Below, in pieces: positions 21,750 through 23,437 of a DNA stretch of 64,000 nucleotides. The notes under the pieces are model-generated. The model had not been told where the DNA came from and did not search any database. It saw only the letters and a list, made by a program, of their open reading frames with translations. The first letter of the stretch is position 1. Each line of letters opens with the position of its first letter. The stretch covers positions 62,278 to 126,277 of the forward strand of contig JADJPS010000020.1 of the NCBI GenBank assembly GCA_016713105.1, given 5' to 3'. The translations under genes and the position numbers were made by a program. Source of the DNA: Devosia sp. GTDB taxonomy: Bacteria > Pseudomonadota > Alphaproteobacteria > Rhizobiales > Devosiaceae.

Positions 21750-21806
21750 TGGCTTCAGCCCCCCGCCGAATCGCCGCGTCGCGCAACTATTGACGGTGAC
21801 CTTTCG

Positions 21807-22429
21807 ATGTCAACTTCGGACCAACAGATCCGCTGCAGCTGGGCCGGCAGCGACCCGCTCTACGTGCACTATCACGATCGGGAATGGGGGCGGCCGGTCA
21901 CCGATGATGCGCGCCTGTTCGAGAAGCTGTGCCTCGAGGGCTTCCAGTCGGGTCTCGCCTGGATCACCATCCTCAGGAAGCGCGATAATTTCCGCGCCGC
22001 CTTCCAGGGCTTCGATATCGCCGTTGTCGCCGCCATGGGCGAGGCCGACATCGAGCGGCTGCTGGCGATGCCGGCATCGTCCGGCACCGCGGCAAGATCG
22101 CCTCGACCATCAACAACGCGCAACGCACACTCGAGATCCAGCGCGAGTTCGGCTCGCTTGCCGCCTATATCTGGAGTTTCGAGCCTGACGGCGGCGGCAC
22201 CGACACGGCGCCCGGTCCGATCCCCTCCGAGACGGACGCCTCGCGCGCCCTCAGCAAGGACCTGCGCCGGCGCGGCTTCAGCTTCGTCGGCCCGACCACG
22301 TGCTACGCCTTCATGCAGGCCATGGGCCTCGTCAACGATCACGCGGAGGCGTGCTGCTGCCGCGCCGGGGTCGAGGCCGAACGCGCCGCGCTTTCGCGCC
22401 CGGCGGGGCCGATGGCCGATAGGCGATAG
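21807..22429 (+). CDS. tag: DNA-3-methyladenine glycosylase I, 1-nt frameshift near 22069
   Basis: RCSWA..DPLY..YHDREWG, LEGFQSGLAWITILRKR; after the shift GIVRHRGKIAS...GFSFVGPTTCYAFMQAMGLVNDH. Confidence 0.9.
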
Positions 22430-22436
22430 CCCCGGC

Positions 22437-22577
22437 TCAGGGGCGGTAGAGCAGCAGCATCAGCAGCGCCAGCCGCGAGAGCGGGGGCAACCCCTCGTCG
22501 CGGCTTTCCCTTCGTGGCGCCCGGCGCGGCCGCTGGGGCTGGCGAGGGGCGGCAGTATCGTCTCCTGGCAATGGCAT
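22437..22577 (-). CDS. 46-aa small protein with Arg/Pro-rich N-part and hydrophobic C-end
   Basis: MPLPGDDTAAPRQPQRPRRAPRRESRDEGLPPLSRLALLMLLLYRP; preceded by the same SD-hairpin-AUG element as the two upstream genes. Confidence 0.55.
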   Translation of the reverse strand: MPLPGDDTAAPRQPQRPRRAPRRESRDEGLPPLSRLALLMLLLYRP

Positions 22578-22686
22578 GGTCGGTCCGGCGCTTCGGGCGT
22601 CCGGCTCCCTGGGATGATCGGAAGTTTGATGGCAAGGTCAGGACCCGCCCCGGCGGTGCGGTGCGGGTCCTGCGAGGCAGGCGCGG

Positions 22687-22909
22687 TCAGCGCCCGATAT
22701 CGGGCGGCAGCCCGATATCCCTGAGCAGGTGCGGCGACAGCTGGGCCGCACTGCCGGCCCGGTAGGGCCGCAGCGTGCGCCGCAGCAGCGCGTTCGCCCG
22801 CCGCTTGAGCAGGTACAGTCGGATGAGCGCGAGGAGTCCGCGGCGGATCTCGTGCTCGCTGAGTTTCGAAGGCCCGCGTCATCTCGCGGTCCCTGAAGAT
22901 CAGAATCAT
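22687..22909 (-). CDS. DUF1127-like small protein 2, probable extra A at 22864-22866
   Basis: Removing one A gives MILIFRDREMTRAFELSEHEIRRGLLALIRLYLLKRRANALLRRTLRPYRAGSAAQLSPHLLRDIGLPPDIGR (73 aa); LSPHLLRDIGL is the DUF1127 core motif. Confidence 0.7.
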
Positions 22910-22976
22910 GGCCGTGTCCGGGAATCTCCCGGTCCTCTGGCGATTGGGGCGGAACCTGCGGCAGGCGGACGGCCGC

Positions 22977-23216
22977 CTACCGGTAGTCCCAGTGACATCG
23001 GGGCTCCAGCACCTCGGGCATCAGCCCCAGGTCGCGCCGCAGGTGCGCGGGGACGGGCGGAGAGCCGCGGGAGCGGTGGTGGCGCGTCTCCCGCGCCGGC
23101 CGGGCGTTGGCCAGCATCGTCACGATGGCCGAGACCACGGCACCGGCGATGCCGGCATGGGCGTGCGAAGCACGGTTCACCCGTGCCGGCGCACGGGCGT
23201 CGAGATTGAGAGTCAT
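22977..23216 (-). CDS. DUF1127-like small protein 1 (79 aa)
   Basis: MTLNLDARAP...Arg-rich segment...PAHLRRDLGLMP. Confidence 0.7.
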   Translation of the reverse strand: MTLNLDARAPARVNRASHAHAGIAGAVVSAIVTMLANARPARETRHHRSRGSPPVPAHLRRDLGLMPEVLEPRCHWDYR

Positions 23217-23345
23217 GGTATCGTCCGGACACCTGTCGCGGGTCCGGTCCTCTGTTGTCGGAAGGCGGGATGGCAACAGGCTTCGGGCGCAGGACGCACG
23301 AAGGCGAAGCCGGTCAGGTCAGGTCGTGAGGCCAGGAGGGGCTGG

Positions 23346-23366
23346 AAGAAGACCCGCAAGCGGGTC
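23346..23366 (-). terminator. Putative attenuator terminator after the leader ORF
   Basis: Minus strand GACCCGC-TT-GCGGGTC followed by TTCTT, starting 8 nt after the leader stop. Confidence 0.55.
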
Positions 23367-23374
23367 GGCGCGCA

Positions 23375-23437
23375 TCAGGCGCGACGAAGTCCAGCACTGC
23401 AGACGCCGGGACCGGAGACGTGAACGAATTTGATCAT
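23375..23437 (-). CDS. 20-aa leader peptide (uORF) MIKFVHVSGPGVCSAGLRRA
   Basis: Strong GGGAGG SD 7 nt before ATG; follows a predicted promoter; followed by competing hairpins. Confidence 0.65.
   Translation of the reverse strand: MIKFVHVSGPGVCSAGLRRA

Follow-up and report, generated by a model that had tools for sequence, protein, structure and literature searches.

A CCGG-closed hairpin separates the Shine-Dalgarno sequence from the start codon of three small genes and an exporter gene in Devosia

Three small genes with a distant Shine-Dalgarno sequence

How is translation initiated at a start codon whose Shine-Dalgarno (SD) sequence lies 23 to 31 nucleotides (nt) upstream? This question is raised by three consecutive small genes, designated g1, g2 and g3, which are located on the minus strand of a 64,000-nt stretch of DNA from Devosia sp. 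(GenBank assembly GCA_016713105.1, contig JADJPS010000020.1, positions 62,278 to 126,277). This stretch is called the window, and positions are given within it unless another contig is named. The same four-part layout was found before each of the three ATG codons: an SD, a CCGG-closed hairpin of 15 to 23 nt, a spacer of 7 to 8 nt and the ATG. The initial annotation of the window had described these three elements and read them as a split ribosome-binding site (RBS), and the letters and minus-strand coordinates that it gave proved exact to the base. On the comparative evidence presented below, the element is probably a hairpin-split, or "accommodated," translation initiation region. A gene for an ABC-B exporter elsewhere in the genome, referred to as the exporter, is also considered. 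The parts of the three elements are as follows.

23248..23253, minus strand: SD of g1, AGAGGA, which can pair with the 16S 3' tail ...CCUCCUUUCU
23225..23247, minus strand: hairpin of g1, CCGGACCCGCGACAGGTGTCCGG, -13.3 kcal/mol when folded alone
23217..23224, minus strand: spacer of g1, ACGATACC, 8 nt
22933..22938, minus strand: SD of g2, AGAGGA, as read from the sequence
22918..22932, minus strand: hairpin of g2, CCGGGAGATTCCCGG, -8.8 kcal/mol when folded alone
22910..22917, minus strand: spacer of g2, ACACGGCC, 8 nt
22605..22610, minus strand: SD of g3, AGGGAG, as read from the sequence
22585..22604, minus strand: hairpin of g3, CCGGACGCCCGAAGCGCCGG, -9.7 kcal/mol when folded alone
22578..22584, minus strand: spacer of g3, ACCGACC, 7 nt

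The 16S 3' end of this genome reads ...GGAUCACCUCCUUUCU, and AGAGGA, GGGA and AAGGAG are all able to pair with it under standard pairing rules. Measured linearly from the end of the SD to the ATG, the distances were 31 nt for g1, 23 nt for g2 and 27 nt for g3, which is too long for ordinary initiation, as the initial annotation had pointed out. The dinucleotide-shuffle z-scores of the three sites with short flanks were weak (-1.3, -0.5 and -0.1). The case rests on the comparison between genomes and not on the folding energy of the three copies.

Spacer and hairpin lengths

The spacing was measured in a set of 101 distinct elements from 69 loci. The hairpins were 14 to 31 nt long and the linear SD-to-ATG distances ranged from 22 to 40 nt, whereas the spacer after the stem was nearly constant, with 7 nt in 9 elements, 8 nt in 49, 9 nt in 38 and 10 nt in 5 (87 of 101 had 8 or 9 nt). 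For g1, the spacers were 8 to 10 nt in 31 distinct elements. The ordinary spacing was measured on 6,783 first-ATG long open reading frames (ORFs) of the genome, in which GGA peaked 7 to 8 nt and GGAG 6 to 7 nt before the ATG. The spacer after the hairpin is equal to this normal spacing or about 1 nt longer, as if the hairpin had a length of zero, and the prediction that a folded hairpin brings the SD to a normal distance, here 7 to 10 nt, agrees with these values. Because the spacer is constant and normal despite the variable hairpin, the hairpin most likely loops out. In addition, no element has a gap between SD and stem, and in 89 of 101 the nucleotides on either side of the stem cannot pair, which argues that the SD stays free. 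An SD-like word was present in only 2 of the 101 spacers. The CCGG/CCGG closure that had been described for the three copies was retained in 99 of 101 elements, but the accompanying AC..CC pattern of the spacer was not a general feature, since the first base was A in 77 and AC was the start in 46.

Natural variants of g2 were found in five Devosia genomes, in which the gene has neither hairpin nor spacer and the same GAGGGA lies 3 to 6 nt before the ATG. The five hairpin-less alleles have a common distinct N-terminus (MITLLRD or MIAIIRD), and the hairpin is present in the genomes that flank them on either side. The simplest reading of its absence from the five would be that it was lost once.

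Conservation and distribution among genomes

Orthologous loci were compared at the three start codons. The N-termini were conserved from the proposed ATG onward in 13 Devosia loci, and the SD-to-ATG stretch varied between orthologs by lengths that are not multiples of 3. The intervening stretch is therefore non-coding, and a coding SD-to-ATG stretch was rejected. The predicted start codons of the three genes are confirmed by these orthologs. The orthologous loci retain the SD together with the CCGG closure and a short spacer, and their loops differ in sequence and length. The CAGAGGA of g1 was invariant in 7 of 8 aligned Devosia loci; its CCGG closure was kept, and its inner helices and loops differed. 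The fifth pair of the g2 hairpin is G-C in the window and A-U in two other genomes (G022 and G065). In the orthologs and tandem paralogs of g3, CCGG and CGC/GCG were kept and the loops were free. This gene is amplified to two or three tandem paralogs at five loci (L003, L013, L023, L040 and L044), each with its own copy of the SD and hairpin, and the paralogs fall into two subtypes, MFLFKRPG...GLELMALFMSR and MFFPRKLG...LELMALLLIR. More divergent Devosia carry a single g1-like gene of 66 to 88 amino acids (aa) after GGGAG-CCGGCGC-loop-GCG-U-CCGG, 8 to 10 nt and the ATG. At one locus of another genus, the closure is CCAG...CTGG, a compensatory double change.

The distribution of the element was determined with covariance models, a search that the initial annotation had proposed. 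An earlier model from five g2 sites (R1) was too sequence-specific and barely detected g3, and it was replaced by R2, a covariance model of SD, hairpin, spacer and ATG. In the genome of the window (a 4.68-Mb assembly in 23 contigs, 67% G+C), R2 found only the three operon sites, with E values of 2.7e-7, 3.5e-4 and 3.6e-4, and the next match had an E value of 0.37. R2 matched orthologous sites in 47 of 64 Devosia genomes, with 1 to 4 sites each, and it also gave matches in four further genera of the Devosiaceae, the family of the Hyphomicrobiales to which Devosia belongs. Multiple sites in one genome were nearly always clustered on one contig and strand; genome G060 has a fourth match on another contig. 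In the rest of the order, three matches were obtained in 150 genomes, of which one, on inspection, precedes a homolog of the exporter gene. The genomes of one genus are non-independent samples, and these counts show breadth and not significance. Among 12 relatives of g1 in named records, 10 were from Devosia and two were from metagenome-assembled genomes (MAGs) labelled only Proteobacteria or Alphaproteobacteria.

A loose CCGG...CCGG pattern gave 83 matches in the genome, almost all of which were judged to be non-hairpins or internal codons on reading the list, with closer checks of the top covariance-model matches only. A separate site on contig 18 (plus strand, ATG at about 155980) has CAAGGAG, GGGGCGGCGCGCCGCCCC, 8 nt and the ATG of a 309-codon ORF, and it is possibly a split RBS with a different clamp.

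The same layout before an exporter gene

The initial annotation had regarded the element as a feature of a small-protein operon. This confinement was not observed, because the same module precedes the ABC-B exporter gene, which is where two R2 matches at the family level led instead of to a small gene. In the genome of the window, the exporter is encoded on contig 17 with the ATG at 108526 (602 aa), and its leader reads GGGA-CCGGTCAGGCGCAATGCGCCGCCGG-ATGCAATCG-ATG. The orthologs in 29 of 30 Devosia genomes have GGGA or GAGGA, a CCGG-clamped hairpin of 21 to 31 nt, 7 to 10 nt and the ATG. In G043, ACGG replaces the 5' CCGG. One Devosia ortholog (locus L099 in G071) has no recognizable SD before the hairpin (...caatcaCCGGAGCGGCGTTATCGCCGGatcggaccATG); this is either an exception to the rule or a gene whose start differs. 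A dispersed intergenic repeat, like the repetitive extragenic palindromic (REP) or miniature inverted-repeat transposable (MITE) elements, was discarded, as only the three operon sites and the exporter site occur in 4.68 Mb.

Outside the Devosiaceae, exporter homologs with the same layout were found in three Phyllobacteriaceae and in one 8-Mb genome of another family, the latter being the match among the 150 genomes mentioned above; the Phyllobacteriaceae homologs come from look-ups of named homologs, not from an order-wide survey. The hairpin is CCGGAG...CUCCGG in Neoaquamicrobium sediminum and CCGGACG-CUU-CGUCCGG in Kumtagia ephedrae, and a Mesorhizobium MAG is the third member of the Phyllobacteriaceae with this layout. 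Upstream of the exporter gene in the genome of the window (contig 17, about 108300-110331, plus strand), there are a divergent TetR-like gene and the palindrome ACTGACTGGTCAGT.

Maintenance of the stem

The maintenance of the stem was investigated by interior shuffling and by covariation. When only the interior was shuffled, all of 62 distinct hairpins were more stable than their shuffled versions, with a mean z-score of -1.6. Because the 62 hairpins are related, this is a consistent tendency and not 62 independent tests. Folded in isolation, the hairpins had energies of -6.2 to -19.5 kcal/mol with the closure formed.

In the model-fitted alignment of the exporter leaders, the covariation score was 0.142 compared with 0.067 +/- 0.013 in shuffles, and 76.8% of the cells could pair compared with 70.9% in shuffles; neither value was reached in any of 500 shuffles. 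Double changes occurred at 5 of 10 pairs, and the fifth pair was AU in 15 sequences, CG in 7 and UG in 3. The inner helices of the exporter element were wholly different between lineages (GGCGC/GCGCC, GCUGC/GCAGC, AGGC/GCCU, UGCC/GGCA and others). In contrast, almost no covariation was seen in the pair counts of the small-gene sites in the R2-fitted alignment, because the clamp and CGC/GCG hardly vary, and this result says little either way. The expected covariation was thus seen in the exporter set and not in the modelled pairs of the small genes, so that the structural case rests on the inner helices, the exporter set and the alignment-free shuffles. MAFFT failed to align hairpins of different length, and RNAalifold on such an alignment gave the outer stem and the fifth pair only. 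In addition, 27 G-U pairs were counted in the inner stems of the 101 elements, which fits RNA pairing and not DNA pairing. Selection on structure, which had been suspected from the three copies, is supported by stems that are maintained while the loops vary freely and by the conservation of the sites at orthologous positions.

Genes of the operon and upstream ORFs

The coding sequences of the operon and the features found upstream of g1 are as follows.

22977..23216, minus strand: coding sequence of g1, 79 aa, MTLNLDAR...HLRRDLGLMPEVLEPRCHWDYR, ATG at 23216
22687..22909, minus strand: coding sequence of g2, ATG at 22909, 73 aa in intact orthologs, frame broken here
22437..22577, minus strand: coding sequence of g3, 46 aa, ATG at 22577, with an Arg/Pro-rich N-terminus and the hydrophobic tail LALLMLLLYRP
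23375..23437, minus strand: g0, a 20-codon upstream ORF (uORF), MIKFVHVSGPGVCSAGLRRA, with the ordinary SD GGGAGG 7 nt before its ATG
23341..23366, minus strand: terminator-like hairpin GACCCGC-TT-GCGGGTC followed by TTCTTCC, just 3' of g0

The products had been described as DUF1127-like. For g2, the resemblance is weak: scores of 16.9, 15.5 and 13.2 bits were obtained against DUF1127 (Pfam PF06568), and the gathering threshold of 23.3 was not reached. g1 is a remote paralog of g2 (hhalign profile-profile probability 96.7%, E = 3.6e-10). No match was found for g1 or g3 in Pfam, NCBIfam gave none at all, and the description did not hold for these two by family assignment. "DUF1127-like" is therefore used here loosely, for a weak resemblance seen in the encoded sequences.

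In alignment with the two closest orthologs, g2 has one extra T at 22862, which puts it out of frame in the assembly; its tail LSPHLLRDIGLPPDIGR, to which the sub-threshold DUF1127 match belongs, lies in the +1 frame and ends at 22687. The convergent tag gene, encoding 3-methyladenine DNA glycosylase I (about 21806-22429, plus strand), is about 800 nt from the g2 site and is also split between two frames, with the break near 22065-22075 at ...ERLLA|DAGIVRHRGKI..., and it is intact in the same two close relatives. Because both indels lie within 800 nt, we suspect sporadic assembly errors and not decay, and the broken frame of g2 is accordingly more likely an assembly indel than the mark of a pseudogene.

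Among the divergent Devosiaceae, the g1-like proteins of four loci (L057, L058, L064 and L076; 84 to 89 aa) have hydrophobic tails (ILTYLRLK and LLAMIWLKR) that resemble the C-terminus of g3 and its paralogs (LALLMLLLYRP and LELMALFMSR). These g1-like proteins with a g3-like tail suggest a gene fusion and a functional link between g1 and g3.

The g0 peptide was conserved in 8 Devosia loci, with synonymous changes. The stem near g0 covaried between loci (GACCCGC/GCGGGTC, GACCCC/GGGGTC and GGCCCC/GGGGCC) and was followed by a T-rich run. A strict terminator scan did not call the hairpin at 23341..23366. A conserved TTGGC...N16...TATCAG was observed upstream. The leader of the exporter gene contains a uORF of 15 to 18 codons about 150 to 220 nt upstream, which has an RPRP or RPRL motif and is followed by terminator-like hairpins (loci L079 to L108); its peptides include MLMHKRPRPMGQMRH, MTAFRPRLAGFTSGLHR and MMHITKRPRPFGDFALR. 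At both loci of the module, a short uORF that has a strong ordinary SD comes first and a terminator-like hairpin after it. In the operon, g0 and its hairpin look like a uORF-controlled attenuator of g1 to g3.

Explanations of the layout

The alignments document the anatomy of the element, its conservation, the constant spacer behind a variable hairpin, the maintenance of the stem and the natural hairpin-less variants. From this record we infer that ribosomes initiate by way of this geometry and that efficient initiation requires the hairpin instead of only tolerating it. The SD would be single-stranded on the mRNA and directly 5' of a stable GC-clamped hairpin. This hairpin would fold and be looped out of the mRNA path on the 30S subunit, and the SD-anti-SD duplex and the start codon would then be separated by the spacer of 7 to 10 nt only. 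In this way, g1, g2, g3 and the exporter could each be initiated from their own SD despite linear distances of 22 to 40 nt. It may be speculated that the SD duplex is coaxially stacked on the abutting clamp.

Several observations weigh against a split initiation region. In 12 of the 101 elements, one flanking pair could be added that takes the last base of the SD. Folding each 5' region, as the initial annotation had suggested, was consistent with the hairpin for the isolated stems, but the longer context, reaching from 70 nt before the hairpin to 40 nt past the ATG, was ambiguous: the average share of the ensemble with the closing pairs formed was about 62%, and the mean probability that the SD is unpaired was about 0.4. 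Such predictions carry noise at a G+C content of 67%. When the whole genome was scanned for an SD of any kind followed by any stable hairpin, no excess appeared at spacers of 7 to 10 nt, and the split layout is therefore not a general initiation mode of this genome. The module is limited to two loci in this genome, for which the geometry alone gives no reason. The four closing pairs, moreover, are near-invariant in all four gene families and at least three bacterial families, while the inner pairs drift freely. A passive spacer should accept any stable clamp, so that the invariant CCGG is left unexplained by geometry alone, and it hints at a sequence-specific reader, either a protein or a ribosome contact.

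Such a reader is the core of an alternative that we regard as possible but unlikely, in which the element is a translational operator: a trans-acting factor would read the CCGG-clamped helix by the SD and repress or activate initiation. The factor could be a dedicated RNA-binding protein, possibly the Arg-rich product of g1 or g2, with g1, g2, g3 and the exporter as its regulon, and this reading can coexist with the split-RBS geometry. It would account for the closure, which is kept although the inner pairs covary, for the restriction of the module to two loci, and for the position of both downstream of a short uORF with its terminator-like hairpin. The bulged U in GCG-U-CCGG, which many g1 and g3 elements keep, also favors it; however, this bulge is not universal, being absent from g2 and, in some elements of g1 and g3, situated on the opposite arm. 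RNA binding is reported for the DUF1127 protein CcaF1 (PMC8034643), but the DUF1127 assignment of g2 is below the threshold, and the factor is a candidate only. Furthermore, g2 does without the hairpin in five genomes, and the exporter module also occurs in the Phyllobacteriaceae, where it was read at the exporter locus only. For the same reason, feedback acting purely within the operon would not be the simplest explanation. A more far-reaching proposal, which we consider quite unlikely, is that the CCGG-clamped SD-hairpin is a sequence-specific initiation signal of a small Hyphomicrobiales regulon comprising DUF1127-like proteins, hydrophobic-tailed peptides and the ABC-B exporter, read by a dedicated factor (possibly g1 or g2) or by a special ribosome contact. 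If true, this signal would couple the expression of the regulon to the state of translation.

The other explanations were each given a low probability. A conditional switch, in which initiation occurs only with the stem folded and melting by temperature, an upstream ribosome or a helicase turns it off, is consistent with the SD being left 22 to 40 nt from the AUG in an unfolded stem and with the modest g2 stems (-6 to -11 kcal/mol). However, most stems have 6 to 10 GC-rich pairs (mean, -11.9 kcal/mol) and are not expected to melt at physiological temperatures, the alignments contain no conserved competing partner for either arm, the SD is outside the stem, and the upstream stop codons precede the SD by 38 and 76 nt, distances from which a terminating ribosome could not open the stem. 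We consider this switch very unlikely, and neither it nor autoregulation by the encoded proteins has support beyond plausibility. The hairpin could also have another RNA role, for example in processing, in stability or as a barrier to Rho, and be tolerated between SD and AUG, or the upstream SD could be unused. Polycistronic small-gene operons are often processed, and the A/C-rich, unstructured spacers could support SD-independent binding. Against this, the SD abuts every stem, the spacer is held to the canonical window, and the stems are too short for RNase III. An intrinsic terminator was rejected, as no U-tract lies 3' of the stem at the three sites and a terminator scan of the strand found none there. 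Altogether, such a role has little probability. Finally, CCGG...CCGG is a perfect inverted repeat at the DNA level and might be the site of a dimeric transcription factor. The half-site distance, however, varies from 6 to 23 bp, the inner arms change by compensation, the 27 G-U pairs would be A-C on the other strand, and the repeat keeps a fixed place relative to SD and ATG, also within the operon. The DNA operator was rejected on the variable half-site spacing and the G-U pairs, and its probability is close to negligible.

Relation to known systems and significance

The closest counterparts of the proposed split initiation region are genes 38 and 25 of phage T4, the phage to whose genes the initial annotation had rightly pointed as a precedent (PMC3014915). 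As experiments have proven, a hairpin cuts the SD-AUG distance from 22 nt to 5 in gene 38 and from 27 nt to 11 in gene 25, and mutations in the stem lower translation (Nivinskas et al. 1999; Malys and Nivinskas 2009; as reviewed in PMC3014915). As in Devosia, the SD is distant (22 to 27 nt in T4) and outside the stem, the intervening hairpin restores the spacing, and conservation of the hairpin extends over a clade, more distant relatives having none. In contrast to the T4 genes, the Devosia elements belong to chromosomal genes of Alphaproteobacteria and precede at least four gene families (g1, g2 and g3 with their paralogs, and the ABC-B exporter). The near-invariant CCGG/CCGG clamp that directly abuts the SD and the conservation of the exporter element across at least three families of the Hyphomicrobiales are further differences.

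A DUF1127 gene of Sinorhizobium meliloti is reported to be controlled by uORF-dependent attenuation, which acts on transcription read-through (PMC12218461). In both organisms, a small DUF1127-type gene lies behind a uORF in a long leader; the uORF is translated in S. meliloti, and the counterpart here is g0 with the terminator-like hairpin before g1. The passages of that paper on SD, hairpins and stem-loops mention no split RBS and no hairpin that separates SD and AUG in the main gene. As far as these passages go, the Devosia module differs in its location at the initiation site itself and also before internal genes.

RNA thermometers of the ROSE type, which occur in the Hyphomicrobiales, and of the fourU type also place short hairpins in the 5' regions of small genes. 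In both types, the SD and/or the AUG are paired inside the hairpin. In contrast, the Devosia stem has the SD on its 5' side and the AUG 7 to 10 nt beyond its 3' end, with flanks that cannot extend the stem in most elements (89 of 101). An RNA thermometer was discarded, as the SD and the start codon are not sequestered. In addition, neither the window region nor five exporter leaders had a relevant match in Rfam 15, even at E values up to 10 or 1.

A search of an incomplete body of literature for "split" or "accommodated" RBSs yielded few papers; besides the T4 review these include, judged from their titles, a standby-site study and articles that only cite the T4 work. Within this coverage, the mechanism proposed here would be that of T4, and the new aspects are the chromosomal alphaproteobacterial setting, the invariant clamp, the several gene families and the order-level conservation of the exporter element. 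Split RBSs have so far been treated as a curiosity of two T4 genes, and here the layout is fixed in the chromosome of a free-living lineage. If the split-RBS reading is correct, such genes would be misjudged by gene finders and RBS calculators in which an SD about 5 to 12 nt from the start is required, and small proteins would be the most exposed. The elements would also form a natural series, with hairpins of 14 to 31 nt, a spacer of constant length, alleles that lack the hairpin and a clamp that does not vary, which would be suited to the study of how the 30S subunit accommodates a structured insert. The same series could be used to test whether a factor reads the clamp.

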